Positions 10,680 through 58,358 of a DNA stretch of 64,000 nt are shown in pieces. Source of the DNA: Candidatus Tanganyikabacteria bacterium (lineage in GTDB: Bacteria; Cyanobacteriota; Sericytochromatia; S15B-MN24; VGJW01). The DNA lies in assembly GCA_016867235.1 (NCBI GenBank), contig VGJY01000001.1:4038-68037 (forward strand), in the 5' to 3' direction. Position numbers and translations under genes: made by a program. The notes below the pieces were generated by a model. That model was not told where the DNA came from, did not search any database, and worked only from the letters and a program-made list of their open reading frames with translations. How positions within the stretch are numbered: the stretch's first letter is position 1; each line of letters starts with the position of its first letter.

Positions 10680-10850
10680 TAGCGCAGCTCGCATGACTTC
10701 GCTCCGGCATGGCGGCCGGCACGGAGGCCGGCCCCACCCGCCGCATCGGTGGCGCAGGCCTCCGTGCCTGCGGCAGAGAGGCGCTAGGCCAATTGAGAAG
10801 CGCTGCTATGGCGTCGCCGGCTGCTTCGTTACGCCGCTGCCTCCCGGCCT
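10677..10850. repeat. Interspersed ~170-bp element, copy 1, containing a conserved stem-loop (GCACGGAGGCC...GGCCTCCGTGC)
   Basis: About 85% identical over >110 nt (weaker to ~170 nt) to the reverse complement of 40610-40786. Both copies begin exactly at a TGA stop (TGATAGCGC.GCTC...). Occupies the convergent gap between the HTH gene and flhG. Confidence 0.5.
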
Positions 10851-11728
10851 TACTTGAAAAGAACCTTGCCCAGCCTCGCGAAGAAGCTCTCCCGGGCGAC
10901 CGGCGCGTGGGATAGGTCCTGCGCCAGGATGGACGCGGCCAGCATGTTCACGCGCTTGCTGGCCAGCGAGTAGGGGTACGCCCGCAGGAAGGGCTGCTGC
11001 TGCAGGACGCTGCGGCCGACGTTGCCGTCCTTCTCGACCCAGCCCAGCAGGCCCACGCGGACCGTGAGGAAGCGCTCGATGATGCCCGAAACCTTGGCGT
11101 GGACGCTGCGCGCCTCCTGCTCGGACTCGACCATGTTGACCACCAGCGAGATCCGCGCCTGCGGATTGCGGCTGTCGAGGGTCTTGATGATGCCGTAGGC
11201 GTCCACGATGGCCGTCGGCTCGGGGGTCGTCACGACCAGGACCTCGGGCGCCGCCAGGACGAAGCCCAGGACGTTTGGCGAGATGCCGGCCCCCGTGTCC
11301 ACCAGGAGCAGTTCGGCGGCGTTTTCGAGCGTCGCCAGTTGCGCGAGTGTGTTGCTCAGCACCGGGGCGTCCAGCGAGGCAAGCTGCGCCACGCCAGAGC
11401 CGCCCGGCACGACGGCGAGGAACGGATCGACCGGGAAGACGATTTCCCAGAGGCCCTTGCGGCCGGCGATCACGTCGGTGATGGTATATGGCGGCGAGAT
11501 GTTGAGGATGACGTCGACGTTGGCCATCCCCATGTCGGCGTCGAAGAGCAGGACGCGGCGGCGCCGCGCCGCCAGCGCCAGGGCCAGGTTGACCGTGAGG
11601 TTGGTCTTGCCGACGCCTCCCTTGCCCGACGTGACGACCAGGATGCGGCTGCGGGGCGGGGCGGCAAGCGGAGCTGCGGCGGCCGGCTGGCTGCCGACCA
11701 GCTCGCGGAGCCGGGCGGCCTGGTCCAC
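10850..11728 (-). CDS. flhG: Flagellar number regulator FlhG/FleN (MinD/ParA-family ATPase)
   Basis: Deviant Walker A VTSGKGGVGKT; MinD-like body; immediately downstream of flhF. Confidence 0.8.
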   Translation of the reverse strand: MDQAARLRELVGSQPAAAAPLAAPPRSRILVVTSGKGGVGKTNLTVNLALALAARRRRVLLFDADMGMANVDVILNISPPYTITDVIAGRKGLWEIVFPVDPFLAVVPGGSGVAQLASLDAPVLSNTLAQLATLENAAELLLVDTGAGISPNVLGFVLAAPEVLVVTTPEPTAIVDAYGIIKTLDSRNPQARISLVVNMVESEQEARSVHAKVSGIIERFLTVRVGLLGWVEKDGNVGRSVLQQQPFLRAYPYSLASKRVNMLAASILAQDLSHAPVARESFFARLGKVLFK

Positions 11729-11759
11729 TAGAGCCTCCTCGGCGGGGCCGGCAGGCGCC

Positions 11760-13121
11760 TCATGGCTGTCCGCCCAGCATGGCCGCGGCCAGGGCCTTCG
11801 CGTCGGCCTCGCGCAGGTCGTCGGGCACCGACTGGCCGTGCGTCATGTACGAGAGGGGCTTGCCGGAGGCCTGGACGGCCGAGACCACGGAGCCGAGCGT
11901 CGCCGCTTCGTCGGTCTTGGTGATCAGCAGCCGATCGACACCGACCTGCGAGAAGCTCTCGATCGCCCGCAGCAAGTTGGCCCGCGTGGCGGTGGCCGAC
12001 AGCACCAGGTGCACCTCGCGCCGCGGCAAGGCTTCCAGGAAGCTCCGCAGCTCGTTGAGGTGCAGCTTGTGCGACGGCGAGCGGCCGGCCGTGTCCACGA
12101 GGATCACCTCGCGGTCGGCCAGGCGGGCGGTCGCGTCGCGCAAAGCGCCCGGCGTCTGCACGACCTCGACGGGGATGCCGATGATGTCGCCGTAGGTCTT
12201 GAGCTGCTCCACGGCCGCGATGCGGTAGGTGTCGATGGTGATGAGGCCGACGGCGCGGCCGCCGAGGCGGAACGTCGCGGCCAGCTTGGCGATGGTGGTG
12301 GTCTTGCCCACGCCGGTGGGGCCCACGAGGATGACGATGGCGGGCCGGGTGCCGGCCTCGCCGGGGGCGATCGGCCCGGCCACCTTCACGAAGCCGGCGA
12401 TGACGTCGGGCAGGCGCTCGGTCATCTGCGTCTCGCCGGCGGCGCCCGCGGCATGCAGCTTCACCAGGGCCTGGCGGGCGAGGGCCGGGTCGAGATCCGC
12501 CTTGACGAGCTGATCGTAGACCTTCTGCTGCGCCGGGGTCCACGACCCCTTGGCGGGCGCCGCGGACTCGAGGCGCGAGACCGCGGCCTCGACCTTGTCG
12601 CCCAGCTTGTCGGCCACCTCGCCCACGGCCGTGCCCACCGCGCGGGACACGACGTCGCGCACCTGATCGCTCAGCTCGCCCAGCACGGCGGTCTTGACCT
12701 GCTCGGCCACCTGGGCCGCAATAGCCGGCGCCGCCGCCGGTAGGCTGCCGGATTGCGCTAGCGCCGCCTCGGCGATGGCCTTGAGCGGATTGCCGGTGGC
12801 GATGGCTGGCCGCTCGTCGGGAGCGGGTGCGTCCCAGGGCCCGATTCCGCCGGCGGGCGCGAGCGGCGCCGTCGGGGTGCGCCGGGGGGCGGGGGGCGGC
12901 CCGAACTCCTCGGGCTCCGGCTCGATCTCTCGCTTCTTGCGCGGCGGCGGGGTCGTGTCGACGGCCGCGAGGACTTCCACAACTTCCTTGCCGAAGAAGC
13001 CAAGGAAGCCGCCCTTGCGAAGCTTGCGCTGGTGCAGGATGACGGCGTCGGGTCCGAGATCGAGCTTGATCTTGATCAGCGCTTCCTGCACAGTAGGCGC
13101 CGTATACTGGCGGATCTTCAC
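11760..13121 (-). CDS. flhF: Flagellar biosynthesis GTPase FlhF
   Basis: SRP-type GTPase motifs (GPTGVGKTTTIAKLA, DTAGR, TKTDE); N-terminal B-domain KIRQYTAPTVQEAL; Pro/Ala linker. Start taken at in-frame GTG 13119-13121, which matches the canonical FlhF N-terminus. Confidence 0.85.
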   Translation of the reverse strand: MKIRQYTAPTVQEALIKIKLDLGPDAVILHQRKLRKGGFLGFFGKEVVEVLAAVDTTPPPRKKREIEPEPEEFGPPPAPRRTPTAPLAPAGGIGPWDAPAPDERPAIATGNPLKAIAEAALAQSGSLPAAAPAIAAQVAEQVKTAVLGELSDQVRDVVSRAVGTAVGEVADKLGDKVEAAVSRLESAAPAKGSWTPAQQKVYDQLVKADLDPALARQALVKLHAAGAAGETQMTERLPDVIAGFVKVAGPIAPGEAGTRPAIVILVGPTGVGKTTTIAKLAATFRLGGRAVGLITIDTYRIAAVEQLKTYGDIIGIPVEVVQTPGALRDATARLADREVILVDTAGRSPSHKLHLNELRSFLEALPRREVHLVLSATATRANLLRAIESFSQVGVDRLLITKTDEAATLGSVVSAVQASGKPLSYMTHGQSVPDDLREADAKALAAAMLGGQP

Positions 13122-13198
13122 CCGAGACCGCCTATCCAGCACCATCTGCTTCGTTGCGCTGCGCCCGCCCGGCCCGCGGCCTCGATCATTCCCCAGCG

Positions 13199-13495
13199 CT
13201 ACTTCTTCTCGGGTGCGGGCTTCTCGGGGGGCACGGGCGGCTTCTTGAGGGCCTGCTTGAGGAGGGCGCCGGCGCTCGGGACGGCCGACGTGGACTTCGC
13301 GGCGGCGGCGGCGGCCTGGGCGGCGCGTTCGTTCTCGGCCTTGATCTCGAGGTAGATTTCCTGCCGGTACACCGGGATGTCGCGCGGCGCCTTCAGGCCG
13401 ATCTTGACCGAGTCGCCCTTGATCTCGAGGACCACGACCTCGATGTCCTCGCCGATCATGATCGACTGGTTCGTCTTGCGGCTAAGAACTAGCAA
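13199..13495 (-). CDS. csrA: Carbon storage regulator CsrA (flagellar, FliW-partnered) with a ~25-aa Ala/Pro/Lys-rich C-terminal extension
   Basis: [48 protein letters not shown] is canonical CsrA; lies directly downstream of fliW. Confidence 0.9.
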
Positions 13496-13539
13496 TGAAT
13501 GGTCTCCCGGCCTCTGCGATCGTAATCAGTATAGCGGGG

Positions 13540-14001
13540 TCAGACGGTGACCGGGGGAGTCTGCGACGCGATGGTCTCGTCCGAGATCAGGCGGGCGCGG
13601 ACCGGGTAGCCCGAATCGTGCAGGACCAGTTGCTTGCCCAGGCGGGTGACCGGATTGATGACAAGCGGACCCAGCAAGTTGGCCGTCATGGCCGCGGGAT
13701 CCTCGGGGATGGTGACCAGTGCGAGTACCAGCGGTTCTTCGCCCTTGGCCAGTTGCAGGGCCTGGCGATCCTCGCCGCCGAGCGAGACCCGGTAATCCGG
13801 GAAGAAGAGCAGCGGATCGATGACCGTGAACGCCAAGGCGGGATCGTCGATAGGCTGGAACCACCGCAGCGGCGCCACTTCGTCCTGGTCTATCAGGAGG
13901 TAGCGCGTGAAATTCTCGAAGCCCAGGATGCCTCCCGCAAACGTCAGGAGGGCGGACTCCTCGAATTCGAGGGTGCCGAACTGTTGAGTTTCGATGTTCA
14001 C
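13540..14001 (-). CDS. fliW: Flagellar assembly factor FliW
   Basis: FliW family similarity (FGTLEFEE..LLTF..GILGFE...YLLI); position between flgL and csrA. Confidence 0.85.
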   Translation of the reverse strand: MNIETQQFGTLEFEESALLTFAGGILGFENFTRYLLIDQDEVAPLRWFQPIDDPALAFTVIDPLLFFPDYRVSLGGEDRQALQLAKGEEPLVLALVTIPEDPAAMTANLLGPLVINPVTRLGKQLVLHDSGYPVRARLISDETIASQTPPVTV

Positions 14002-14011
14002 GGCCTAAGTT

Positions 14012-14917
14012 CTACCTCAGGTAGTCGATCAGCGTTGGTTGGATGACGCGGGAGCCGGCGGCGAGCGAAGCGCGATAGACCGAATCCTGGCGGTTGAGGT
14101 CCGTGATGAGCTTGCTCATGTCGGCATCCTCCGTCTCGCTCTTGAACCTCGAGAGTTCGACGTTTTGATCGGACAAACGCTGCCGGAGCAACTCGAGGCG
14201 CTGGACCTTGCCCCCCACGACGGACTGCTCGGTCAAGAACACCTGCTGGCGCTTGTCGATGACCGGGATCAGATCCTCGATCGCCGCTTGATCGTTGGCC
14301 CGGAGGGCAGCCGAGAGATTGGACATGAGCTGGAAGACGTTGGTCGGGTCTGCGGGATCACTGCCAATGGCCTTGGTCCGCCCGAACACGTCCACTCCCA
14401 AGGTGTTGTATTGTATCGTGACCGCCTTTCCAATGACCAACTGCATCCTGGTCGTATCGGTCGGGTCGGAGGCGTCATCGGGATAGGGTTTGGTGGACGT
14501 GTCGGCCCCGTTGAACAGATAGCGGCCTTCGAAGTCGGAGTTGGCGATGGCGCGCAGGTGGCCGCTCATCTGGTCGATTTCGTTGGCGATGGCGTTGCGC
14601 TCGTCGGAGCTGTTGGTATCCGAAGCGGCGCGCACGGCCAGTTCGCGCACGCGTTGCAGCACTTCGTTGCCCTCGCTGATGGCCTTGTCGGTGGTGTTCA
14701 GCCACGTGATGGCGAACTCGGCGTTCTTCTTGAGCTGATCGCCCACGTCGATGGCCGAGCGCAATGTGAGCGCCTGCGAGAAGCGCACGGGCGCGTCGGT
14801 GGGCTTGTTGATGTCTCGCCCGGTCGACAGTTTCTCCTGGATCGCCAGCATGGCCGAGAGGTTGCGATTGAGGTTGAACAGCGTGGTGTTCGACAGGATG
14901 CTCTGCGTGACGCGCAA
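14012..14917 (-). CDS. flgL: Flagellar hook-associated protein 3 FlgL
   Basis: N-terminal flagellin-like MRVTQSILSNTTLFNLNRNLSAM and a C-terminal flagellin domain. Confidence 0.85.
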   Translation of the reverse strand: MRVTQSILSNTTLFNLNRNLSAMLAIQEKLSTGRDINKPTDAPVRFSQALTLRSAIDVGDQLKKNAEFAITWLNTTDKAISEGNEVLQRVRELAVRAASDTNSSDERNAIANEIDQMSGHLRAIANSDFEGRYLFNGADTSTKPYPDDASDPTDTTRMQLVIGKAVTIQYNTLGVDVFGRTKAIGSDPADPTNVFQLMSNLSAALRANDQAAIEDLIPVIDKRQQVFLTEQSVVGGKVQRLELLRQRLSDQNVELSRFKSETEDADMSKLITDLNRQDSVYRASLAAGSRVIQPTLIDYLR

Positions 14918-14923
14918 GACGCG

Positions 14924-16483
14924 TTACCTCCCCACGGTACCCATCTGGTTGATCACGCGATCGAGCAGGCCGTCGAACGTGTTGATCATGCGTGCCGAGG
15001 CCGCGTACGTGTGCTGGAACTTGATCATGTTGGCCATCTCTTCGTCGAGATTGACGCCCTGTACCGTCTGGCGCAGGTTGTCCACGTGCTCGAGGAGGGC
15101 CTTCTGGTTGTCCAGCAGTTTCTTGGACGTCTGGCCCTGCACGCCCAGGCTCGTCAGCACGTTGCGGTAGAAGTCTTCGGCGGTGAACTTGCCGGCCGTG
15201 ACGGCCGAGGCGATCGTGCCGTCCGTGACGAGCTTGAACTGGAGCTGCGAGATGGCCAGGGCCGTGCCGTTGTCGCCCTTGGGCGGCCAGGTCTCGGAGC
15301 CCGGGGCCCCGCCTGGCGCCCGGCCGGCGGCGATCAGGTCGAGGGCGGCGCCGCCGTTGGCCGAGAATACCGGATTGAGCGACATGTTCGAGGCGTTGAT
15401 GATGGTGGCGTTGAACTGCGACGCGACGCCCTTGCTGGAGTCGATCGTGAAGAAGTCCGGGCCGTAGCCGGGCTGGAGCGTGCTGCCGGCGCGGTGCAGG
15501 TCGTTGACCGAGGTGGCGAGCTTGTTGGCCAGCACATCGAGCTGGTACGCCAGGCCGCCGGGCGTGTTTGGCTGGATCGAGCCGGGCGGCACGACCGGCC
15601 GGCCGATCACCTTGTCGCGCATGTCGAAGAGGCCCTTGAAGATCCCGCCCATGTACGCCGGCGGGATGGGCTCCTTGTCGTAGGCGACCGAGTTGAAGGA
15701 AAGCTCGCCGTTGTTGACCAGCTCCAGCTTCTGGGCCTTGTCGCCCTGCACGACGGCCTTGCCGAAGATGAAGACCCACGTGGTGCCGTCGGAACGCTGG
15801 CTCTGCTCAAGGCGAGTATAGCGGCTCAGCTTGTCGAGAAGCAGGTCGCGCTGGTCCATCAGGTTGTTTGGCTGGACGTTGGCGCCGAGCGCCGCCGAGA
15901 TCTGGGCGTTGAGCTGGGCGAGCTGGTCGATCATCCCGTTGACGTCCTTGACCGCCGCGCCGATGCGATCGTCGATGTCCTCGCGGAGCTTGAGCAGGCC
16001 GGAGCCGATTTCGTTGAAGCGGTTGGTCATCGCCGTGCCGGTCTCGCGGAGATTCGCGCGGGCCGCGGCCTCGGTCGGGCGCTTGGAAACTTCGTTCCAG
16101 GCCTCCCAGTACTTGCTCATCAGCTTCTGGAGGCCGGTATCGGAGGGTTCGTTGAACAGGCCCTCGATCTGGTTCATGATCCCCGAAAACGTGTCCTGCT
16201 CGCCGTACTTCACCGTGACGTCGCGGAACTGCTGGTCGAGGAACTGGTCGCGGACGCGGGTCACCATCTCGACGTCGACGCCGCTCCCGAGCGAGGACTT
16301 CGTCGGGTCGGCCTGCAGCGTGAGGGGGAACGCCGAACTGGCCGCGGCGACCTTCACGGTCTGCCGCGAGAAGCCTTCGGTATTGGCGTTCGCGATGTCG
16401 TGGCCGGCGGTGTTGATGGCGTTCTGCGCCGCCCACAGGCCGCGCGTGGATAGATTGATGCCGGCGAAATTGAGATCGGCCAG
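14924..16483 (-). CDS. flgK: Flagellar hook-associated protein 1 FlgK
   Basis: C-terminus GVNLDEEMANMIKFQHTYAASARMINTFDGLLDRVIN is typical. The conserved N-terminus (ADLNFAGINLSTRGLWAAQNAINTAGHDIANANTEGFSRQ, aligning to B. subtilis FlgK residues 5-40) lies in frame upstream of the first ATG/GTG/TTG (16357). 5' end is therefore set at CTG 16481-16483, which sits 8 nt after a GGGGAGGG Shine-Dalgarno. Confidence 0.8.
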   Translation of the reverse strand: MADLNFAGINLSTRGLWAAQNAINTAGHDIANANTEGFSRQTVKVAAASSAFPLTLQADPTKSSLGSGVDVEMVTRVRDQFLDQQFRDVTVKYGEQDTFSGIMNQIEGLFNEPSDTGLQKLMSKYWEAWNEVSKRPTEAAARANLRETGTAMTNRFNEIGSGLLKLREDIDDRIGAAVKDVNGMIDQLAQLNAQISAALGANVQPNNLMDQRDLLLDKLSRYTRLEQSQRSDGTTWVFIFGKAVVQGDKAQKLELVNNGELSFNSVAYDKEPIPPAYMGGIFKGLFDMRDKVIGRPVVPPGSIQPNTPGGLAYQLDVLANKLATSVNDLHRAGSTLQPGYGPDFFTIDSSKGVASQFNATIINASNMSLNPVFSANGGAALDLIAAGRAPGGAPGSETWPPKGDNGTALAISQLQFKLVTDGTIASAVTAGKFTAEDFYRNVLTSLGVQGQTSKKLLDNQKALLEHVDNLRQTVQGVNLDEEMANMIKFQHTYAASARMINTFDGLLDRVINQMGTVGR

Positions 16484-16531
16484 GGTCTGGTGCCCTCCCC
16501 GTCACTCCCCCGAGTGCTGGTTTCCTGGATG

Positions 16532-17038
16532 CTAGGCGGTCCGGTTCAGGAGTACGCTACCGGACTTCGCGGGGCCCTCCTGTTCGGGCCCGTATAACAT
16601 ATCGGCAAGCCGCTCCTCTGGGTTGAGGATGCTCCCGATGACTTCCATCGAGTATTTGACGAATTCGAGGGACGTCGAAAGCAGGAGTTCGCAACGCTCG
16701 TTGCCCTCGCGCAGGCGCGCGGCCCGCTCCAGGAGCGCTTCGCGCAGCTTGGCGAGGCGTACCCGGGACGCCGCGGGGAGCCGATCGATGATGTCGGACA
16801 GCGGCGCGCCGGTCGGCAAGCCGATCTCGGCTGCGAGCTCCGCGGATGCGACGGCGCGGTCGCGCTCGAAGGCGCGCAACTTCTGCTGCTCTTCGGCTTC
16901 CCTGGCCAGGAAGCGCTCGAGAGAGGCGACCTGCCCGCGCTTGATGAGCGCCAGCTTGAGCGGAAGCCGGGTCAAAAACGCCGAGTAGCCCTTGGCCTCC
17001 GCCTCGAGGATCGACTCCAGGCGGGTCGTGTCGGCCAT
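16532..17038 (-). CDS. flgN: Flagellar chaperone FlgN family protein
   Basis: Size, coiled-coil character and position between flgM and flgK. Confidence 0.7.
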   Translation of the reverse strand: MADTTRLESILEAEAKGYSAFLTRLPLKLALIKRGQVASLERFLAREAEEQQKLRAFERDRAVASAELAAEIGLPTGAPLSDIIDRLPAASRVRLAKLREALLERAARLREGNERCELLLSTSLEFVKYSMEVIGSILNPEERLADMLYGPEQEGPAKSGSVLLNRTA

Positions 17039-17041
17039 GGG

Positions 17042-17356
17042 CTACTTTCTCAGGTCGTCGATGTCGAGTTGCTCGGCACCGCGTTCGATGATGGCGTTGG
17101 CGACCGACTCGCCGGTTGGTTTGTAGGTTCCCTTTTCGACGGCCTCGCGCAGCTGAGCCACCTTCTCGGCCCGGGTCGCAGGACCCGCCTTGATGGCGGC
17201 GCCGAAGACTTTCAGAGCCTCTGCCGGCCCGGAAAGTTCGACATTGACGGCAGCATCGGCGGCTTTAGGTGGTGCCTTGACCGCCTCGGCTTCCTTCTTC
17301 CGCTGTGTCGCGGCCACATCGCTCGTCTGAGCGATCAGACGCGGATCGATTCTCAC
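17042..17356 (-). CDS. flgM: Anti-sigma-28 factor FlgM
   Basis: 104 aa; conserved C-terminal FlgM region (KVAQLREAVEKGTYKPTGESVANAII); GTG start; sigma-28 promoter upstream. Confidence 0.75.
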   Translation of the reverse strand: MRIDPRLIAQTSDVAATQRKKEAEAVKAPPKAADAAVNVELSGPAEALKVFGAAIKAGPATRAEKVAQLREAVEKGTYKPTGESVANAIIERGAEQLDIDDLRK

Positions 17357-17401
17357 GGTGTATCACCCCGATTTCACTTGGGATGCCCTGTCCCAATCAT
17401 C

Positions 17402-17429
17402 CTATCGGCTCCGATTCTCCGGAACTTTA
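17402..17429 (-). promoter_or_regulatory. Sigma-28 (FliA) class III flagellar promoter: TAAAGTTC-N12-GCCGATAG
   Basis: The minus strand reads TAAAGTTCcggagaatcggaGCCGATAG, ending 46 nt upstream of the flgM GTG; matches the TAAAGTTT-N11-GCCGATAA consensus. Confidence 0.55.
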
Positions 17430-17471
17430 GGGCCAATCCGCGAGGGCATCTCGGCAGGATGCGCGGTAACT

Positions 17472-17852
17472 TTAATGCCTGGCCTCCCGCTTTGGGGCCG
17501 GTGCGGGATCGCCGGCGCCATCGGCCGGCTCCCGCTCGCCGGTCAGCTCCTCGACCATCTTCTCGAAGCAATCCTGGCAGAACTCGCCGTGCTCGGGCGG
17601 CTTGCCGCAGCGGATGCACCTGAGCAGCTGGCGATTGAGGTGCTCGAACGCGACGTACTTGCCATGCTTGAGGAACCCCCGGACCTCCTTGGCGCCGAGA
17701 CCCAGGGCGCGCTCGATCTCCTCCAGGGTGGCCTCATGGTTCTCCGACAGGAACTGGAAAAGTTTCACGTAGGTTTCACGACAAGGCGCGCAAAGCTTTT
17801 CGGGGCCGACCTGGTTGAACGCGCGTTCGCAGTTTCGGCAGTTGACGAGCAC
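17472..17852 (-). CDS. Flagellar operon zinc-ribbon protein, TIGR03826 / YvyF-like
   Basis: CxxC...CxxC zinc-ribbon pairs (CRNCERAF, CAPCRE, CIRCGKPPEHGEFCQDC); position immediately upstream of flgM as in B. subtilis yvyF. Confidence 0.65.
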   Translation of the reverse strand: MLVNCRNCERAFNQVGPEKLCAPCRETYVKLFQFLSENHEATLEEIERALGLGAKEVRGFLKHGKYVAFEHLNRQLLRCIRCGKPPEHGEFCQDCFEKMVEELTGEREPADGAGDPAPAPKREARH

Positions 17853-17867
17853 GTCGCCCTCCGCGGC

Positions 17868-18293
17868 CTACCTGGCGTACTTGTCGCTCCGCAGCTCGTG
17901 GCCGAACTCGGTCCGGCGCCCCTGTTGCTGCGGCGCATCCTCGGCCTCGCCGCCCTGCGGCGCCAGGGCGTCGCCGATGCCGCCCATGACCGCTCCGGCG
18001 CACCGCTTGCATAGCCGACCGCGGTCGATCTCGGCCCCGCACTTCTCGCAAGTCCAGCGCACGTCGGAGTTGCCGGTCATCAGGCGCCCGGTGCGAAACC
18101 ATTCCAGGATGAGGCTTTCCTTGACCTGGGTCTGCTCGGAGATCACCGACACCTGGGTCTTCGGATTGTCGCGCAGAAACTGGTAGACCTTCTCGAACTG
18201 CGCGTCCTCGATGTCCTGGCAGTCGCGGCAAATCTTGACATTGGGGAGCTTGTTGAAGGTCTTGCCGCAGCGCGGGCAATTGGACAACGCCAT
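17868..18293 (-). CDS. Second TIGR03826 / YvyF-like flagellar operon zinc-ribbon protein (tandem paralog)
   Basis: MALSNCPRCGKTFNKLPNVKICRDCQDIEDAQFEKVYQFLRDNP parallels the downstream paralog (VNCRNCERAFNQVGPEKLCAPCRETYVKLFQFLSEN). Confidence 0.65.
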   Translation of the reverse strand: MALSNCPRCGKTFNKLPNVKICRDCQDIEDAQFEKVYQFLRDNPKTQVSVISEQTQVKESLILEWFRTGRLMTGNSDVRWTCEKCGAEIDRGRLCKRCAGAVMGGIGDALAPQGGEAEDAPQQQGRRTEFGHELRSDKYAR

Positions 18294-18337
18294 CCGGGGA
18301 CTCCTTTGCGCGGTGGGGGCGAAAGTTCGCCCCGAGG

Positions 18338-18748
18338 TTAGTCTAGTCCCTGAACGGGGGAAGGCGCAACCTTCGCGGGCTTTTCGGGGGGGACCGTGCG
18401 CACGAGCTCACGGTAGATCGAATCGGCGAAGCCCAGGCTGCTCCGGCGCGCCATCTCGCGGCTGGTCTGCTGGTCGAGCATGTCGCGGAAGATCTTGTTG
18501 GCCTGGCCCTTGCCCAGGAGGTCCTGCCCCAGGTGGGTGGCGCGCATCGCCGAGAGGATCTGCCCGACCATCACGGCCTCGAACTCGCGGGACAGGACCT
18601 TGAGCTTGCGCCGCTCCGGGTCCAGCTTTGCATCCTCCGGGGAGAGCAGCGGCGGTCCGAAGGCCGTGCCGCCAAGGCCCGAGCGCTCGAGGCCCGAGCC
18701 CTGGATGACACGCGTGCTCGCCGGGAGGGGGGCGAGGTAGTCCGACAT
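18338..18748 (-). CDS. Flagellar rod-binding protein (FlgJ N-terminal-domain-like; Rod-binding family)
   Basis: Rod-binding motif region FEAVMVGQILSAMRAT; follows flgG. Confidence 0.7.
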   Translation of the reverse strand: MSDYLAPLPASTRVIQGSGLERSGLGGTAFGPPLLSPEDAKLDPERRKLKVLSREFEAVMVGQILSAMRATHLGQDLLGKGQANKIFRDMLDQQTSREMARRSSLGFADSIYRELVRTVPPEKPAKVAPSPVQGLD

Positions 18749-18760
18749 TGCCTAGCGCCC

Positions 18761-19543
18761 CTACCGCTTGAGCGTGTTGGCCATCGCGAGCATCTCGTCG
18801 GACGTCTGGATGGCCTTGGAATTGGCTTCGTAGGCGCGCTGCGCGACGATCAGGTTGACCATCTCGTCCACGACGCGGACGTTGGAATTCTCGAGGAAGC
18901 CTTGCAGCACGTTGCCGAGGCCTTCGGTGCCCGGGAGGCCCTCGATGGGCTCGCCCGAGGCGCTGGTCACGCCGTAGAGGTTGTGGCCCAGATTGGTCAG
19001 GCCGGCCGGATTGATGAAGCGCACGAGCTGGATCTGGCCGAGCGTGACCTGGCTCCCGTTCAAGGAGCCCGTCACCAGGCCCTCCTGGCTCACGTTCGGG
19101 CGGATGATGCCCTGCGGGAGCGAGATGTTCGGGATGAGGAGCAGGCCTTCCTGGGTGAGGATCTGGCCGCTCCGGTCGATCTTGAAGGAGCCGTCCCGCG
19201 TGTAGCCTCGCGTGCCGTCCGGCATCTGGATCTGGAAGAAGCCGTCGCCCTCGATGACCATGTCCAGCGGATTCTCGGTCTGCACGAAGTCGCCCTGCGA
19301 GAAGACGCGCATGATGGCCACCGAGCGCACGCCCGAGCCCACCTGGGTACCCACCGGGATCACCGTGCCGCCCGAGACCGGGACTCCCGCTTCCGCGGCG
19401 GTGCGGTAGAGCAGGTCCTGGAACTCGGCGCGGGCCTTCTTGTAGCCCGTCGTGTTCACGTTCGAGAGGTTGTTGGAAATCACGTCGGTGTTCAGCTGCT
19501 GCGCCTTCATGCCGGACGCGGCGCTGTACAACGCTCCCATCAT
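18761..19543 (-). CDS. flgG: Flagellar basal-body rod protein FlgG
   Basis: N-terminus ALYSAASGMKAQQLNTDVISNNLSNVNTTGYK and C-terminus NVRVVDEMVNLIVAQRAYEANSKAI. Confidence 0.85.
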   Translation of the reverse strand: MMGALYSAASGMKAQQLNTDVISNNLSNVNTTGYKKARAEFQDLLYRTAAEAGVPVSGGTVIPVGTQVGSGVRSVAIMRVFSQGDFVQTENPLDMVIEGDGFFQIQMPDGTRGYTRDGSFKIDRSGQILTQEGLLLIPNISLPQGIIRPNVSQEGLVTGSLNGSQVTLGQIQLVRFINPAGLTNLGHNLYGVTSASGEPIEGLPGTEGLGNVLQGFLENSNVRVVDEMVNLIVAQRAYEANSKAIQTSDEMLAMANTLKR

Positions 19544-19595
19544 GGCCGGTGGGGTCTCCTCTCTTGCTCTCTGGCGATGCTTCGGCGCGGGCGGC

Positions 19596-20375
19596 CTACG
19601 CGGGCCTGGCGATGTCGTTGACGGCGCGGCCCAGGGTCTCGTCCAGCGTGGTCATCGTGCGCTGGGACGCCTCGTAGGTGCGCAGGGCGCTGATCATGTT
19701 GACCATCTCGGTGATCGGGCTGGCCGACGACATCTCGAGGAACCCCTGGTGGACCGTGAAGTTCCTGGATGTGAAGACGGGGATGCCCGGCCCCGGGACG
19801 TAGTAGTTGGCCCCCTGCTTCTTGAGCTGGTTCATCGGGTCGGGGACGGTCACGATGCGGAGCTTGTCGATTTCCTGCGTGCCCGCGATGACGGTGCCGT
19901 CATCCGAGATGGTGAGCCTGCCGCGGTCGGGGAGGAGGATCTCGCCGGCTCGGCCCAGGACGGGGTTGCCCTCGCCGTCCACCAGGCGGCGCTGCGGGTC
20001 CACATGGAACTCGCCGTTGCGCGAAAGTACCTCGTTGCCCTGGCGATCGCGGATGACGAAGAAGCCGTCCCCGCGGAGGGCGAGGTCGCTCGGGTTGTCG
20101 GTGTCCTTGAGATCGCCCTGGGAGTGCGCCGCGCTGATCTGGTCGACCATCGCGTCGATGTAGATCGTGCCCAGACTGTTGATCATGGCCGGGGCACCGA
20201 GGCCGGGCACCGCGGGCTGCATCTTGAGCATGTGCATCGGCGTACGGGCGCGGAACAGCGCCAGGTCGCGCTTGAACCCCACGGTGTTCAGGTTGGCCAG
20301 GTTGTTGGAAATGACATCCTGCTGCGCCATCTGGGTCACCATGGCCGAAGCGGACGTATAGATCCCGCGGATCAA
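19596..20375 (-). CDS. flgF: Flagellar basal-body rod protein FlgF (FlgG paralog)
   Basis: Rod-protein N- and C-terminal conserved domains (GIYTSASAMVTQMAQQDVISNNLANLNTVGFK ... VNMISALRTYEASQ). Confidence 0.75.
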   Translation of the reverse strand: MIRGIYTSASAMVTQMAQQDVISNNLANLNTVGFKRDLALFRARTPMHMLKMQPAVPGLGAPAMINSLGTIYIDAMVDQISAAHSQGDLKDTDNPSDLALRGDGFFVIRDRQGNEVLSRNGEFHVDPQRRLVDGEGNPVLGRAGEILLPDRGRLTISDDGTVIAGTQEIDKLRIVTVPDPMNQLKKQGANYYVPGPGIPVFTSRNFTVHQGFLEMSSASPITEMVNMISALRTYEASQRTMTTLDETLGRAVNDIARPA

Positions 20376-20449
20376 ATGGTGCTACTCCCTCCCACATGCG
20401 GCCCCCGTACGGCCGCCTGAATTATCAATTCGGCAGCCTTGCCCGGAAG

Positions 20450-21025
20450 TTAAGGCTGGTTGCCTTGGTAGATATCCAGGACCCGGCGGACGAAGGCCTG
20501 GGTCTCGCGGTAAGGGGGGACGCCCTTGTGGCGGGACACGGCGTTTTCGCCGGCGTTGTACGCGGCCAGGCCCAGCGACAGGTCGCCGCCGAACTTGCCG
20601 ATCATCCGCTTGAGGTACTTGCCGCCCCCCGTCATGTTGTCGACCGGGTCGTAGGGGTTGCGCACGCCGTAATCCCGCGCCGTCTCGGGCATGAGCTGCA
20701 TGAGGCCCATGGCGCCCTTGTGGCTGCGCGATCGGGGATCGCCGCCGGATTCGACCCGGACCACCGCGGCCAGGAGCTTGGGGTCCATGCCGGACTTGCC
20801 GGCCGCCTTGGCGAGGGCGGCCGCGAAATCGTAGCTCTGGGTGCTGGCCTCGCCCGGGTCAATCTGATCGGGGCCGGCATCGCCAGGGGCATAGGATAGT
20901 CGGGTGGGGCCGGCCTCCGTGCCGGCCTCGGGAGGCCGCGGCGGAACGGGCGGTGGCACGAAACGGGCCTCGATCTCGCGGATCCGCGAGAGGATCTGGT
21001 CGAGGCCCGACGGCTCCAGGCTCAT
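20450..21025 (-). CDS. Lytic transglycosylase (SLT domain), flagellum-associated
   Basis: SLT catalytic region VVRVESGGDPRSRSHKGAMGLMQLMPETA...AAYNAG; located within the rod gene cluster. Confidence 0.8.
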   Translation of the reverse strand: MSLEPSGLDQILSRIREIEARFVPPPVPPRPPEAGTEAGPTRLSYAPGDAGPDQIDPGEASTQSYDFAAALAKAAGKSGMDPKLLAAVVRVESGGDPRSRSHKGAMGLMQLMPETARDYGVRNPYDPVDNMTGGGKYLKRMIGKFGGDLSLGLAAYNAGENAVSRHKGVPPYRETQAFVRRVLDIYQGNQP

Positions 21026-21034
21026 CGCCCGAGC

Positions 21035-23041
21035 TTACACCCCCAGCAGCCAGTCCAGCTTGCGGGCCGGATCGTCGCCCTGCGTGGGTTTGGGGCGTGG
21101 GCGGGGGCGCGGCGCGACTTGCGGCGCCAGCGGCGCGGCGGACCTGGGTGCGGCCGGAGCGGTGGACAGGCGCTCGACCTGATCGGCCAGCGCCGCCAGG
21201 GTGCGGCGGATGTCGGCGAGTTCGTCGCCGCCTTCGCCGCCAGGCCGGCGGGTACGCATGGACAGGTCGGAAAGCTTCGTGCTGACCTGCTCCTGCCAGG
21301 ACGACAGGCGCTCGGTCCGATCGATCAGGCGGGCCTGCTCGGCCCGCAGGGGCTCAACCAGCTGGCGCAGATCGTCTCGCTCCGCCGTTATCTCCGCCAG
21401 TTGCCCGGCCAGTGCGTCGCGTTCTTCCCGGAGCTTGTCCATGTCGGCCTCGATTCCACGTAGTACGGCTAGTTCTTCTTCGCGTTGCGCCAGGCGGGCT
21501 TCGAGATCGCCGGCTCGCTTATGTAGGGTTTCGGCAGTGGCGCTGGCCGTCTGGAGGGTGATGGCCGCCTGGTTGGCTCGCTCGAGCGCGGCATCGCATT
21601 CGACCTTTGCGGCGTCCCGCGCGGCTTCGGCCATTGCGAGCCGCTGCCGCAACTCGCCTGCCTCGTCGGCGGCCTTGGCTGCCACGTCGGCCTGCTCGGC
21701 GGCGTTTGCCGCGGCGGCGGTATCCAGGTCGGCACGCAGGGCCGCCACCGCCTCGCGCAGCTGGGCGATCTGGTCCCTGAGGCCCTCCGCCTCGATTTCG
21801 GCGGCCTTCCGCGCGGCGGCGGCAGCGTCCGCCTTGGCCAGGGCCTCCTGCCGCTGGTTGCCGGCGGCCTCCAGCTTCACCTCGGCGATGCGCGCCGCCT
21901 CGCGCGCTTCCTTGAGCGCGTCTTCGAGCCGGGTCCCATGCTCGAGAGCTTCATGGAGCCGGCCGGCCAGGTCTCCGACGGCCTGCTCGCCGGCGGCCTC
22001 GCGCTCGGGTAGATCCTGGAGCTGCTGCTCGATGAGATCCCGCTCGGCCGCCAGTTTGTCCCGCTCGGCGACCAGATCCGCGTGCATCGCGACCAGCTTG
22101 TCGTGGGCTTCGGACAGCGCGGCGAACTCGGTCTCCACCGCGGCCAGCCGCTCCTGCGCCGCCTGCTTGTCCGCTTGCAACTCGGCGAGCTTCTCCTGGA
22201 GGTGCGCGTCTCGCGCGCCGTCCGGCTGCTCGGTGCCGCCTTGCGGGCCGTCCGGCTGGTCGGCGAGCCTGGACCCGCCGCCCGGCGCCGCCTCGCTGGA
22301 AGCTGCAAGTCGCTCCTCGACCTCGGCCAGTCGGTCTTCGAGCCGCCGACGCTCGTCTACGGCTTCCTGGAGCTGGGCCCGCAAAGCGGACTTCTCGCTG
22401 TCGGCCTCGACCAGGCGCAGGGCCGAAGCCCGCGCCTCCTCGGCCTGCGCCAGCCGGGTCTCGAGGTCCCTGATCTGCTCCTGCTGGTCGGACCCGGGTG
22501 GCGGCCCGGCCTCGTCGCGATCGCGGGCGGCGCGGGCCTGCTCCTCGCGCAGCGTGCTGACCAGCGCTTCGGCGGCGGCCAGGCGGCTCTGGAGCGCCGC
22601 CAGATCGTGCTCGTGATCGGCTATCTGCGTCCCGAGGATTTCCCGCTCGGACGTCATGCGCGACACTTCGCGCTCCCGCGCCTCGATCTCCTCGCCCCGG
22701 GCGACGACTTCCGCCCGCAATCGCTCCACTTCGCCCTCGAGGTGATCCACCGCGACGCGGAGGTCGGCCGCCGCCTGGTCGGCGGGGCCCCCCTCGGGCT
22801 CCTGCCGGGCCGCCCTCTCGAGGTCGGCGCGAGCCGCGGCGAGTTGCTCTTCGGCCTCCTTGAGCGTCGTGCGCTGCTCGTCCACGGTGACCTTGAGCCG
22901 CCGATTCTCGTCGCGCAGCGAGTTGTACTTGCCCTCGATGGACTTGAGTACGACCTTGAGCTGCTCGGGGGTGATCGTGCCGAGCGGATCGTCGGTCTTC
23001 TTGAGAAGACCGCCGAGTTGCTTGCTCAGCTGATCAAACAA
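21035..23041 (-). CDS. Large coiled-coil protein (668 aa; E/A/R/L-rich heptad repeats), function unknown
   Basis: Long ORF with uniform coiled-coil composition and strong GC3. The opposite-strand Ser/Ala-rich ORF is its shadow. Starts 6 nt downstream of the ParM-like gene. Confidence 0.65.
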   Translation of the reverse strand: MFDQLSKQLGGLLKKTDDPLGTITPEQLKVVLKSIEGKYNSLRDENRRLKVTVDEQRTTLKEAEEQLAAARADLERAARQEPEGGPADQAAADLRVAVDHLEGEVERLRAEVVARGEEIEAREREVSRMTSEREILGTQIADHEHDLAALQSRLAAAEALVSTLREEQARAARDRDEAGPPPGSDQQEQIRDLETRLAQAEEARASALRLVEADSEKSALRAQLQEAVDERRRLEDRLAEVEERLAASSEAAPGGGSRLADQPDGPQGGTEQPDGARDAHLQEKLAELQADKQAAQERLAAVETEFAALSEAHDKLVAMHADLVAERDKLAAERDLIEQQLQDLPEREAAGEQAVGDLAGRLHEALEHGTRLEDALKEAREAARIAEVKLEAAGNQRQEALAKADAAAAARKAAEIEAEGLRDQIAQLREAVAALRADLDTAAAANAAEQADVAAKAADEAGELRQRLAMAEAARDAAKVECDAALERANQAAITLQTASATAETLHKRAGDLEARLAQREEELAVLRGIEADMDKLREERDALAGQLAEITAERDDLRQLVEPLRAEQARLIDRTERLSSWQEQVSTKLSDLSMRTRRPGGEGGDELADIRRTLAALADQVERLSTAPAAPRSAAPLAPQVAPRPRPRPKPTQGDDPARKLDWLLGV

Positions 23042-23047
23042 GGGGAC

Positions 23048-24082
23048 CTAGGCCTCGAGGACTTCGGCCATCTCCCGCTGCGGCACGCGCAGGGCGAATT
23101 CGTAGGCGCCCTTGACGTTGTAGTAGCGGCAGTCGTTTGCCAGGATGAGGTCGCGCAGGTACGGGAACTGGACGAGCAGCGGGTAGAGCACCTGGCCGAA
23201 GCCGCCGACCAGCAGCATGTGGTCGATGGACAGGTCGCGCCAGACCTGCTTGACCGTGAGCGCGATTTGCTGGGCCATGAGCTCGCACAGCTCCTGGTTC
23301 ATGTCGCCAGGGATGGCGATTTCCTGGCCGTTTTCGATGTAGCGGCCGGTGGTCACGGCCTCCATGGCGGCCAGCGGATTGACCCGCGCCACGCCGCTCG
23401 CCGTGAGGAAATCCGAGATGGCTTCGACGAGCCGGATGCCCGCGGCCGACGTGTTGTGCCCGCTGAACTTCGCCAGCTCCTTGGGCAGCTTCACCACCAC
23501 CCAGTCGGTCGAGAGGTGCCCGGGGTCGATGACCGCCGTGAGCTCGTCGGGATTGGGATCTAACTGGCCCTCGAGGGTCGCGGCGTAGATGGCGCCCAGC
23601 GGCCGCGGCAGCACGTCCACCTGCGCGATGTCGAGCGTCATGGGATGCCCGCAGAACTCGAAGCGATGGGTGCGAGCCCAGGTCGCCACGTGCTCCTCCG
23701 CGTAGCCGGGACGCCTCGCGACGAACACCGGGATGCCCAGGCCCAGCTTGAACCGGGGCGTGCCCTGCAGGCGGCGCTTGCGCGTGTAGAGCCCGAGTGC
23801 GGCCAGCAGCAGCACCAGGTTGAGATCGTCCTGGAAGAGGTCGATGTCGTTGACCGGGAACAGGAAGGGCTGCTCGCTGGCGTGGCGGCCCACGGTGTAC
23901 AGGTGCTTGCCGGCCTTCACCGACAGGTTGCTTTCGAGGGACTCCTCGAGGAGCTTGCTCGAACCCCGGGACACGGCCGACACCGGTCCCCCGACGAGGG
24001 TCGGAAAGGTGTAGAGCGCCTCGCCGTCGTAAATGCGAATCTCGCTGCGGCCTAGGTCGACGCCAAGCGTAATCGGTTCCAT
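23048..24082 (-). CDS. Actin-like ATPase, ParM/StbA family
   Basis: Actin-fold motifs: phosphate-1 LGVDLGRSEIRIY, phosphate-2 VIDPGHLSTDWVVV, adenosine MLLVGGFGQVL. Confidence 0.7.
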   Translation of the reverse strand: MEPITLGVDLGRSEIRIYDGEALYTFPTLVGGPVSAVSRGSSKLLEESLESNLSVKAGKHLYTVGRHASEQPFLFPVNDIDLFQDDLNLVLLLAALGLYTRKRRLQGTPRFKLGLGIPVFVARRPGYAEEHVATWARTHRFEFCGHPMTLDIAQVDVLPRPLGAIYAATLEGQLDPNPDELTAVIDPGHLSTDWVVVKLPKELAKFSGHNTSAAGIRLVEAISDFLTASGVARVNPLAAMEAVTTGRYIENGQEIAIPGDMNQELCELMAQQIALTVKQVWRDLSIDHMLLVGGFGQVLYPLLVQFPYLRDLILANDCRYYNVKGAYEFALRVPQREMAEVLEA

Positions 24083-24234
24083 GGGCGGTCTGCGCTCCTA
24101 CAAGATCGAGGTGGGTCGTCACTCCGGGACAAGCCCGAGGTTTGAAGTGGGGGCGGGTTGCCCAATTGTAGCAACAAACACGTGCGGCGTCGGTGGAAAA
24201 CTCGAACTTCCGCTCGTGCTAGAGTGGCCAGCGT

Positions 24235-25143
24235 ATGCGGGTTTGGGCAGTACTCGGGTTCGCCGCCTTGGCGGCGGGATGCCGGGACGCGGCGCCACGA
24301 CTGCCTCCGATGGCAATGCGCACCCTCGCCGCCGGGCCGGCCGCAGCCGTCGGGATGCTGCCCGACCGGTCGCTGCTCGTGGGCGCCGGCGGAGCCCTCT
24401 GGGTGGTGTCGTCCGCCGACGGCGCGACCCGGCCGGTGGCCCTCGATTACGGCGCGGCGAAGCGCCGGTTGCAGGACGTTCGCGCCATCGCATGCAATCC
24501 GGCGGGCACCTGCGCCATCGCCGATCTGGCCAACAACCGGGTGTGGGCCTGGGAGCAGACCGGCACGCGGCCCGGCGCGGTCACCGCGTCGCTCAAGCCC
24601 CTGGCCGGGAGCGGAACCGCCTTCTACCCCATCGGCGACGGCGGGCTCGCGGCTTCCGCGCAACTCGACGCCCCGCGGGGCGTGGCCTGGCTTCCCGACG
24701 GCTCGCTCGCCCTGTCCGACACCGGCCATGGCCGGGTGCGCCTCGTCGCGGCGGATGGCCGGATCGTCACCTTGGCGGGCACCGGCCTTGCCGGCGCGCC
24801 CGGCGACGCGGGGCCTGCCGGCAAGGCCGTCCTGCTGGCACCAGGTCCCCTTGCCGCGGGGCCCGACGGGAGCCTGTTCGTCGTCGAGACGGGCGCTCCC
24901 CGCGTGCGCCGGATCAATCCGGATCGGCAGATCGAGACCCTCGCGACCGAACCGGTCGCCGCCCTCGCGGTGACGCCCGGCGGCGTCGTCGTGGCCGCGG
25001 TGGGCCGCGAGATCCGGACCGTCGGCGCCGGCGACGGCCAGGCGGTGGCCCGCGACCTGCATGGTCCGGCGGGCCTGGCCGTCGCGGCGGACGGCACCCT
25101 CGCAGTCGCGGACACCGATCGGGTGGTCCTCCTGGAGCCCTGA
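24235..25143 (+). CDS. NHL-repeat beta-propeller lipoprotein
   Basis: Lipobox LAAGC; repeated units of the form PxGVA...DGSL.V.D.G..RVR. Confidence 0.6.
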   Translation: MRVWAVLGFAALAAGCRDAAPRLPPMAMRTLAAGPAAAVGMLPDRSLLVGAGGALWVVSSADGATRPVALDYGAAKRRLQDVRAIACNPAGTCAIADLANNRVWAWEQTGTRPGAVTASLKPLAGSGTAFYPIGDGGLAASAQLDAPRGVAWLPDGSLALSDTGHGRVRLVAADGRIVTLAGTGLAGAPGDAGPAGKAVLLAPGPLAAGPDGSLFVVETGAPRVRRINPDRQIETLATEPVAALAVTPGGVVVAAVGREIRTVGAGDGQAVARDLHGPAGLAVAADGTLAVADTDRVVLLEP

Positions 25144-25217
25144 GAGAAAGGTTATCTCCGGGTTAAGAAAAGTTGAGGACGGCACCAAGGTGTGCGATAA
25201 ACAGATCAGTCTCGACC

Positions 25218-29383: not shown

Positions 29384-29629
29384 ATGCGCACCACCCTGAA
29401 CATCGATGACGACGTCCTGGCGGCCGCGAAGGAACGGGCGCGGCGGGAGCGCCGGAGCGCCGGGGAGGTCCTTTCCGAGCTGGCGCGCCGCGGGTTGACC
29501 GCCTCGACCGGCGGCCCGGGCGATGGCGAGGGTGAGGCGTTTTTCGGATTCCGGCCGCTCCGTCGGCGCACGGGCACGATCGTAACTACCGAGCTGATCG
29601 ACAGACTGCGCGACGAAGGCCCGTACTGA
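29384..29629 (+). CDS. vapB: Type II antitoxin VapB (ribbon-helix-helix)
   Basis: MRTTLNIDDDVLAAAKERARRERRSAGEVLSELARRGL; 5 nt before the PIN gene. Confidence 0.8.
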   Translation: MRTTLNIDDDVLAAAKERARRERRSAGEVLSELARRGLTASTGGPGDGEGEAFFGFRPLRRRTGTIVTTELIDRLRDEGPY

Positions 29630-29633
29630 ACCG

Positions 29634-32791: not shown

Positions 32792-32921
32792 GCCCTGGTC
32801 TGATTAGTGGGAAATCCCCGACGAATCTTCAGACTTGTTCATATAGGATTCGTAATCGAGAGATCGGTTGCCGGGTATAACCGGTAATAGAGGCTATCCC
32901 GGCCTCCGGAGATCAGGTGCG

Positions 32922-42518: not shown

Positions 42519-42686
42519 GGGCTCGCCTAGCCACCGCCGTCTGTCGAGGTCGGAGCGGGGCCTGGCATCCAGGGGATTCGACGCTGCATCCGACAGTCTG
42601 AAACTTTGCTCGCAAGCAATCCGGTCTAAGATGCATTAGCCAGCCAGGTCGGGTTGGTTGGCCTTGAGAGACAGGCGGGACTCGAA

Positions 42687-55454: not shown

Positions 55455-55572
55455 CGGCGGCCTCCGCAGGAGGAGGCTGCCAGGGTCCCGGGATGGCGTA
55501 AAGGGCCGGCTGGCCGCAGGCTCTCCCGGGCGCCGGCCGCGGCACGCTGATTCCCTCCTCTCTCCCGGGTAC

Positions 55573-56943: not shown

Positions 56944-56968
56944 TGAGTTGCCCCCCGAGGAGGCTCTC

Positions 56969-58306: not shown

Positions 58307-58358
58307 ATTTGCCCGAAAATTTCGCCCTCGCTCACTTCTCTGCGGGGCCGGCTGGGTA

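Follow-up and report, generated by a model that had tools for sequence, protein, structure and literature searches.

We analysed a stretch of 64,000 nucleotides (nt) of contig VGJY01000001.1 from Candidatus Tanganyikabacteria bacterium, here called the window, and found on its minus strand two adjacent genes that head a string of flagellar rod genes. The first encodes an actin-like protein (ALP) of 344 amino acids (aa) that belongs to the ParM superfamily of ATPases (23048..24082), and the second a 668-aa coiled-coil protein of a new family with conserved termini and a rod of variable length, which we call the partner (21035..23041). The reading we prefer, and to which we give an even chance of being correct, is that ALP and its partner form a lineage-specific, chromosomal ParMR-like cytoskeletal pair that was recruited to the flagellar regulon. 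On that reading, suggested by the gene neighbourhood, the role of the pair is probably to tether or position basal bodies, or to mark the point of wall breaching. A sequence-only reading of this locus had described an actin-like gene with complete phosphate-1, phosphate-2, and adenosine signatures, of ParM/StbA type, followed by a giant heptad-repeat coiled coil in place of a small ParR and placed directly upstream of SLT, flgF, flgG, and rod-binding genes on the same strand; each of these features was recovered in the analyses below.

Both minus-strand open reading frames (ORFs) were confirmed, with ALP starting at an ATG and the partner at a TTG that is kept in orthologues, which open with MFDQL or MLDSL. 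The spacing is exactly 6 nt, so that the TAG of ALP is followed by GTCCCC and then by the TTG. GC content at third codon positions (GC3) was 0.92 for ALP and 0.85 for the partner, which is a coding-type composition in a genome of ~68% GC, and since orthologues 41-94% identical were also recovered, both are real genes. The two ORFs lie in one frame, split only by the TAG and two codons, and read-through would yield a fusion protein. GC content was uniform across the window. Repeats resembling parC in 23900-24400 were limited to two-copy matches at chance level, and a tandem repeat search over 20000-25500 found no iteron array, only short coding-region repeats.

The assignment of ALP to the ParM superfamily is based on both fold and profile. 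ALP scored 37.1 bits against Pfam ALP_N (cut-off 26.3) and had no match to MreB_Mbl at E ≤ 0.01. The NCBIfam ParM equivalog models scored 18.7 bits, far under their cut-off of 417 bits, indicating that ALP is a divergent ParM member; its weak NCBIfam matches were to plasmid ParM and PRTRC-D models. The AlphaFold model, built on a 29-sequence alignment, had an actin fold (pLDDT 88.6, pTM 0.88), and a Foldseek search of the PDB with this model returned only ParM, Ta0583, Alp12, or CorM structures at ranks 1-24 (E 3e-18 to 1e-12; TM up to 0.74). The top matches were Dh-cParM1, pCBH ParM, Ta0583, pSK41 ParM, CorM, BtParM, Alp12, and R1 ParM (E 3e-18 to 1e-14), with Dh-cParM1 the best (2.9e-18) and CorM at 5e-17. 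MamK was a weaker structural match (3e-11 to 1e-10), and MreB structures fell below every ParM (E ~1e-11, TM ~0.58). We therefore rejected, on Pfam and fold ranking together, the possibility that ALP is a divergent MreB or Mbl. A profile of the ALP family matched pCBH ParM at 6.5e-19, CorM at 1.2e-10, and Dh-cParM1 at 3e-9, while a search with the single ALP sequence reached CorM at E 0.75 only.

The nucleotide-binding signatures of ALP are conserved throughout the 29 aligned family members. In the phosphate-1 motif (residues 7-14, GVDLGRSE; 24041..24064, minus strand), G7, D9, L10, G11, R12, S13, and E14 are invariant, as are D186 and G188 in the phosphate-2 motif (residues 184-192, VIDPGHLST; 23507..23533, minus strand) and G293, G294, and G296 in the adenosine motif (residues 290-297, LLVGGFGQ; 23192..23215, minus strand). 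Because these three motifs are invariant in the family, ALP likely binds nucleotide. The catalytic position is occupied by Arg160 (23603..23605, minus strand), in the alignment column ..(I/L)P(Q/R/T)P(V/L)G.., which from motif alignment and prior knowledge we take to be the equivalent of ParM E148 and actin Q137. Most family members carry Gln here, Arg is found in the window ALP and its near clade, and one member has Thr; at the same column pCBH ParM aligns FPQGAG and CorM aligns MPEGYG. The hydrolysis kinetics of the window orthologue with its Arg160 are uncertain.

Several further observations concern the sequence of ALP. Three Tanganyikabacteria-type loci (L003, L018, and L019) are the nearest to the window by FlgG (73% identity), FlgM, and FlgN, and their ALPs are only 48-49% identical to that of the window, an accelerated evolution that coincides with the Gln-to-Arg change at the catalytic position. 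Some orthologues (P0024-P0037, P0043) have an N-terminal extension, MTTENAPQMVRLTYVLPAKMxGKVF, followed by a Pro/Ala-rich disordered region that recalls the intrinsically disordered N-terminal region of CorM. Others (P0005-P0020, P0046-P0050) have a C-terminal tail ending in xEVEA or EVEV, and the window ALP ends in ..EVLEA (23048-23065).

ALP homologues were restricted to one part of the bacterial tree. A search of 5.8 billion proteins recovered 51 of them (41-94% identity), and all that were named came from Sericytochromatia or from metagenome-assembled genomes (MAGs) labelled 'Cyanobacteria bacterium'. A scan of one genome per GTDB species found ALP in 20 genomes, nearly all labelled Sericytochromatia or Candidatus Tanganyikabacteria, with three labelled 'bacterium' only and two short contigs carrying photosynthetic-cyanobacterial MAG labels. 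An exhaustive HMMER search over 1.84 billion cluster representatives returned seven family representatives at 292 bits or more and a few fragments, then a gap down to ~118 bits. Proteins just under this gap match ParM and PRTRC-D models well below the cut-offs; they include named Firmicute ParM/StbA proteins (Desulfitibacter, Symbiobacterium), the closest relatives of the family at ~100 bits, and a Halanaerobiales protein, and the two outgroup loci that we inspected were chromosomal, amid housekeeping genes. From this taxonomic spread and the bit-score gap, the ALP family is a discrete, deep, Sericytochromatia-restricted branch of the ParM superfamily. Among 72,556 plasmids the best relatives were PRTRC-D genes, with 25-27% identity over two-thirds of the protein, and 50,697 phage records held none. 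A metagenome scan added nine loci, mostly duplicates. The nearest public contig, Ga0194128_10024731 (L032), encodes an ALP 94% identical to that of the window, and its identifier belongs to the same numeric series as that of L019 (Ga0194133), a Lake Tanganyika MAG of Candidatus Tanganyikabacteria (K_Offshore_40m), a hint that the window may derive from a freshwater member of the Sericytochromatia.

The partner is an all-helical coiled coil that constitutes a new protein family. Heptad a/d positions were enriched at z = 12.5 relative to shuffled sequences, and the AlphaFold model was ~90% helix with no beta strand. We found no transmembrane segment, no significant Pfam or PDB relative, and no match to a ribbon-helix-helix (RHH) or ParR family in Pfam. 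Orthologues range from 248 to 822 aa and their central regions barely align, but three elements towards the ends are conserved. Residues 1-14 (MFDQLSKQLGGLLK; 23000..23041, minus strand) form a predicted amphipathic helix (AlphaFold helix 2-14) with a hydrophobic moment of 0.56, above the 95th percentile of interior 14-mers, and orthologues keep this motif as MFxxLQxQLGxLLG. The helix is followed by a conserved head, the hallmark of the family (residues 18-50, DPLGTITPEQLKVVLKSIEGKYNSLRDENRRLK; 22892..22990, minus strand), with the consensus DPLGxITPEQLKxVLKSIEGKYNxLRxEN, in which I23, L32, I35, E36, Y39, and N46 are invariant among 16 divergent orthologues. At the other end, the AlphaFold model has a disordered, Pro-rich linker (residues 628-657) and then a short helix (residues 658-667; ..DDPARKLDWLLGV; 21038..21079, minus strand). 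This C-terminal helix is basic and amphipathic, DPARKLDWLLG in the window clade and RRRE(L/M)LxRLIG elsewhere, and the motif is kept in every complete orthologue.

Relatives of the partner beyond these orthologues were not recovered in the searches we made. A search with the first 70 residues gave two candidates and nothing true, and a search with the full-length alignment was dominated by unrelated coiled coils, with five true orthologues, all from Sericytochromatia-type sources. Orthologues are mislabelled 'SbcC' or 'chromosome segregation ATPase' in the source databases. Matches to DivIVA, ZapB, and a phage scaffold (E > 1e-4) were not regarded as homology, and we likewise treated as noise the PDB and Pfam matches of the head to a calmodulin EF-hand-like pattern (GxIsxxELkxVL) and to the N-terminus of Ffh. 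In the latter case, residues 1-35 of the partner (MFDQLSKQLGGLLKK...GTITPEQLKVVLKSI; 22937-23041, minus strand) resemble the opening 34 residues of the N-domain of Ffh/SRP54 when profiles from the PDB are searched (E ~0.02), a likeness that is probably a convergence of amphipathic helices; FlhF, itself an SRP-type GTPase, is a product of the operon to which the partner belongs.

In one clade, two tandem head-bearing genes follow ALP (L014 11024-11449; L009 ~11046, L013 ~11064, L016 ~5815, L017 ~11069). The first is short (141 aa in L014), starts 3 nt past the ALP stop, has an acidic tail, and lacks the RRRxxLxRLIG motif; the long partner comes next. The apparent gaps of 200-665 nt between ALP and partner in that clade hold this short paralogue of the head, and the duplication of the head as a separate short gene suggests that it is the core functional unit of the partner.

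Downstream of the pair, on the same strand and with gaps of 9-74 nt, lie genes for a 191-aa SLT-domain lytic transglycosylase, the third gene of the string (20450..21025; Pfam SLT, 1e-27), the proximal/distal rod protein FlgF (19596..20375; Pfam and NCBIfam), the distal rod protein FlgG (18761..19543; NCBIfam FlgG, 342-357 bits), and a Rod-binding protein of the single-domain FlgJ N-terminal type (18338..18748; Pfam Rod-binding, 4e-15). The string continues with two yvyF genes, flgM, flgN, flgK, flgL, fliW, csrA, flhF, and flhG (10850..18293, minus strand; Pfam and NCBIfam). It comprises 16 same-strand genes over 13.2 kb, counted from ALP, closes with flhF-flhG, and has a largest gap of 174 nt; the order yvyF-flgM-flgN-flgK-flgL-fliW-csrA is a Bacillus-type layout. 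A simple scan across 16400-24400, from ALP through flgN, found no terminator-like site on the minus strand, and from this and the close spacing we infer co-transcription of ALP, the partner, and the rod genes. The presumed promoter lies in the intergenic region upstream of ALP (24083..24234, minus strand), which is shared with a divergent NHL-repeat lipoprotein gene. There we read a putative extended -10-like element, TGCTACAAT, at 24165-24173, and a scan upstream of ALP found no full sigma-70 consensus.

Synteny with flagellar genes, whose lack in all relatives the sequence-only reading had named as a refutation, was assessed in the 16 of 20 species-level genomes that have enough downstream sequence. 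At every locus examined, the gene after ALP carries the partner head and usually begins 0-12 nt on. Of the 16 informative genomes, 15 have flgF-flgG further downstream on that strand, with the pair heading the string in all 15. In 14 of these flgF-flgG come directly after the partner or SLT, and in one after a 5.6-kb insertion. The arrangement persists down to 48% ALP identity. In the clade with a 248/251-aa partner (three scanned genomes and L004), SLT is missing and the partner abuts flgF. The same chromosomal neighbours, namely the divergent NHL-repeat lipoprotein gene and GH1 genes, recur in relatives with 48-75% ALP identity, on contigs of up to 636 kb.

The transglycosylase between the pair and the rod genes also has features of a flagellar enzyme. 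Its best NCBIfam match was the 'flagellar assembly lytic transglycosylase' model BB0259 from Borrelia, and neither a signal peptide nor a membrane anchor was found in any SLT orthologue of any clade, including the divergent clade described below. The orthologues (L001-L026) share an N-terminal GLxxVLxRIxxI motif, part of a conserved helix, GLxxVLxRIxxIxxRF, which is followed by a Pro/Ala linker; this helix may serve the flagellar type III apparatus as a signal for export or docking. FlgJ of Salmonella is exported via the flagellar apparatus without a Sec signal. By analogy, the lack of a Sec signal here points to a flagellar enzyme, and we infer that SLT is a substrate of the flagellar export apparatus.

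These observations can be assembled into a proposed mechanism for the pair. ALP would bind nucleotide and polymerise, and the partner, whose gene is presumably coupled to ALP in translation, would be its dedicated adaptor: a parallel coiled-coil rod whose length varies by lineage, ~30-100 nm if extended. One conserved terminus would dock on the filament, and we favour the C-terminal amphipathic helix after the Pro-rich linker because it is with their C-termini that ParR and CorR bind ParM and CorM. Binding of cargo, either the membrane or a basal-body component, would then fall to the opposite end, which consists of the N-terminal helix and the ITPEQLK..SIEGKYN head. The pair would head an operon that supplies an enzyme for cutting peptidoglycan (SLT), the distal rod (FlgF/FlgG), and a rod-cap scaffold (the FlgJ N-terminal type protein). 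From this position in a rod and SLT operon, we propose that its job may be to position nascent basal bodies, set their spacing, or anchor them, or else to define the point at which rod and lytic enzyme break through the wall.

A number of points weigh against this proposal. With Arg160 at the catalytic position, the window ALP could have lost its ATPase activity and filament dynamics or show them in atypical form. In the most divergent clade (41-44% ALP identity) the block is an LCP ligase gene followed by ALP-partner-SLT, without flgF or flgG adjoining, although on one contig of that clade fliJ-fliI lie 1.3 kb further on; at the UBA8530 locus there is no flagellar gene within 8 kb. The gene adjacency may be historical. 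With FlhF and FlhG encoded in the operon itself and two FapA genes close by, flagellar placement nominally has its factors already, and no need remains for the pair to be the only such system. Finally, scores for a sigma-28 consensus upstream of ALP at 25 loci were no better at best than those of shuffled sequences, which is weak evidence either way since rod genes are normally not sigma-28 dependent.

The divergent clade leads to the most serious rival, which we consider possible, if on the unlikely side: that the pair is a general morphogenetic or cell-wall cytoskeleton like CorMR or MreB/Mbl, with SLT as its effector and the rod-gene neighbourhood a matter of history. The LCP ligase block of that clade fits such a role, as do wall-related genes upstream of the pair in several relatives, which encode M23/PcsB-like and CtpB-like peptidases. 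FlhF/FlhG and FapA, being the conventional placement factors, also favour it. CorMR provides a precedent within the cyanobacterial lineage for shape control by a chromosomal ParMR through a membrane-binding adaptor helix, and the Firmicute shape protein Mbl is encoded upstream of flgF-flgG-flgJ with no flagellar role known (PMC3720852). However, the transglycosylase fits flagellar export better than a housekeeping periplasmic enzyme, since Sec signal and membrane anchor alike are missing from it in every clade, and its best model match is a flagellar one. The clade that lost SLT nevertheless kept the pair abutting flgF, and the persistence of rod-gene synteny to 48% ALP identity also speaks against a merely historical neighbourhood.

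A second rival, which we regard as improbable, holds that ALP is a non-filamentous actin-fold ATPase that works with the partner as a chaperone, regulator, or scaffold in rod assembly or export, in the manner of PilM-PilN or FtsA. The Arg at the catalytic Glu/Gln position would suit this, as would the degenerate phosphate-2 motif of ALP (DPGHLS versus DxGGGT) and its faster evolution than that of flagellar proteins in the lineage (48-49% identity versus 73% for FlgG). Yet the closest structural and sequence relatives of ALP are all polymerising ParMs, no PilM or FtsA stood above the ParMs in the Foldseek ranking, and most family members have Gln at the catalytic position as does the filament-forming pCBH ParM. 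The remaining rival sees in the pair what is left of a type II partition cassette (ParMRC), degenerate by now, from a plasmid or an integrative and conjugative element that came to lie beside flagellar genes by chance. It draws on the ParM fold and family of ALP and on its weak matches to plasmid ParM and PRTRC-D models, but is effectively refuted, a plasmid or phage origin being rejected because neither the partition-site repeats that the sequence-only reading had tied to a mobile remnant, looked for around the operon, nor close plasmid or phage relatives were found, the partner has neither an RHH domain nor a beta strand, GC content is uniform, and the chromosomal synteny is conserved.

We compared the favoured reading, a ParMR-like pair recruited to the flagellar regulon, with known filament and placement systems. 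The sequence-only reading had drawn an analogy to MamK and MamJ, in which a supramolecular organelle is likewise arranged by an actin-like filament with its own adaptor that does not act on DNA. The ParMR and CorMR systems are the closer analogy. MamK was the weaker structural match, the window holds no magnetosome genes, and MamJ is an acidic repetitive protein and not a coiled coil. If the pair positions flagella, FlhF/FlhG and FapA would be its functional analogues. FlhF is an SRP-type GTPase and FlhG a MinD/ParA ATPase, with folds unrelated to that of ALP.

The plasmid ParMRC systems of R1, pSK41, and pCBH of C. botulinum resemble the pair in the actin-like fold, in the nucleotide motifs, and in the order of an actin gene followed by a coupled adaptor gene. 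Unlike ParMRC, the pair has no parC, no RHH ParR, and no mobile context, and instead comes with a giant coiled-coil adaptor and flagellar rod genes. ParMs encoded in the genomes of Desulfitobacterium hafniense and Clostridium botulinum are chromosomal and polymerise (J Biol Chem 2025, PMC12270681; PDB 8X1I), and the outgroups of the ALP family are likewise chromosomal Firmicute ParM/StbA proteins; these cParM cassettes retain candidate cParRs of the RHH type and lie outside any flagellar context, and the paper mentions neither flagella nor a coiled-coil adaptor (PMC12270681).

CorMR of Anabaena sp. PCC 7120 is a chromosomal ParMR that has been repurposed for cell shape (bioRxiv 10.1101/2025.06.27.661541; PDB 9RMI), and is the sole chromosomal ParM with an assigned function other than segregation. 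Like CorMR, the pair includes a chromosomal ParM-superfamily actin from the cyanobacterial lineage. CorR binds the membrane through an N-terminal amphipathic helix and CorM through a C-terminal peptide (bioRxiv 10.1101/2025.06.27.661541), and the partner is similarly predicted to begin with an amphipathic helix and to end in a linker and a short helix. CorR is ~160 aa and ParR-derived, and CorMR is linked to MinC and multicellularity; the paper mentions neither flagella nor a coiled-coil adaptor (bioRxiv 10.1101/2025.06.27.661541). In contrast, the partner is a coiled coil of 248-822 aa with no detectable ParR ancestry. Nor does ALP appear to be an orthologue of CorM, given the single-sequence result and the closer profile match to pCBH ParM; the ALP family is confined to Sericytochromatia.

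A positional parallel that the sequence-only reading overlooked is found in Firmicutes, where mbl-flgF-flgG-flgJ and mbl-flhO-flhP operons have been described and their significance called unknown (PMC3720852). As in those operons, an actin-superfamily gene stands upstream of distal-rod and FlgJ-type genes, a likeness of position only. The actin of ALP-partner-SLT-flgF-flgG-rod-binding is ParM-like whereas that of mbl-flgF-flgG-flgJ is MreB-like, and no coiled-coil partner has been reported between mbl and flgF. That two actin lineages share the flgF-flgG-flgJ slot could reflect displacement around a conserved function, or coincidence. A doubtful but wider proposal is that, in Terrabacteria, the assembly of the flagellar rod has an ancestral and so far unrecognised accessory in filaments of the actin family. 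If so, the MreB-like protein of Firmicutes and the ParM-like protein with a coiled-coil tether of Sericytochromatia would be a non-orthologous displacement that preserved function. The pair would then tie nascent basal bodies, at their cytoplasmic face, to a track of the cytoskeleton and set the site at which rod and SLT breach the wall, as a third flagellar placement system beside FlhF/FlhG and polar landmark proteins.

Several other genes of the window were noted. Two tandem YvyF-type zinc-ribbon paralogues (TIGR03826; 17868-18293 and 17472-17852, minus strand) lie between the rod-binding gene and flgM, at a place where most relatives have a single copy. On the plus strand, two tandem FapA paralogues (31451-32791 and 32868-34277) are found ~7 kb upstream of the operon; relative L003 likewise has a FapA gene close to its orthologous locus. 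A separate fliH-fliI cluster, possibly with fliJ, lies at 55243-58868 (plus strand); the FliH encoded there has an unusual length of 566 aa, of which the FliH domain takes up residues 431-537 only, and its ORF overlaps fliI by ~80 nt. Given the flagellar string, this second cluster, and the two FapA genes, the window organism is flagellated. The window also holds a probable VapBC-type toxin-antitoxin pair (29384-30062, plus strand), in which 4 nt separate an 81-aa ORF without a Pfam match from the gene after it, which encodes a PIN-domain protein (PF01850, 2.5e-9), and a gene for a 2083-aa bacterial alpha-2-macroglobulin with MG2, A2M, and bMG10 domains (42654-48905, plus strand), followed by an M14 carboxypeptidase gene on the opposite strand and a MoxR-DUF58 (VWA) pair.

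In the literature that we searched, we found no precedent for a flagellar operon that includes a ParM-like or actin-like protein. For a long time, chromosomal homologues of ParM were set aside as remnants of plasmids. The first demonstrations of their polymerisation, with the cParMs, and of a new cellular job, with CorMR, date only from 2025. For the pair described here, the pattern of conservation across a whole class argues for a function. If the favoured reading is true, this would be a second, independent repurposing of ParM, with a long coiled-coil adaptor instead of ParR, and would give ParM a new cellular partner in the genes for the flagellar rod and for peptidoglycan penetration. The locus also offers a way into a puzzle that goes back to at least 2013, namely why mbl heads flgF-flgG-flgJ in many Firmicutes.

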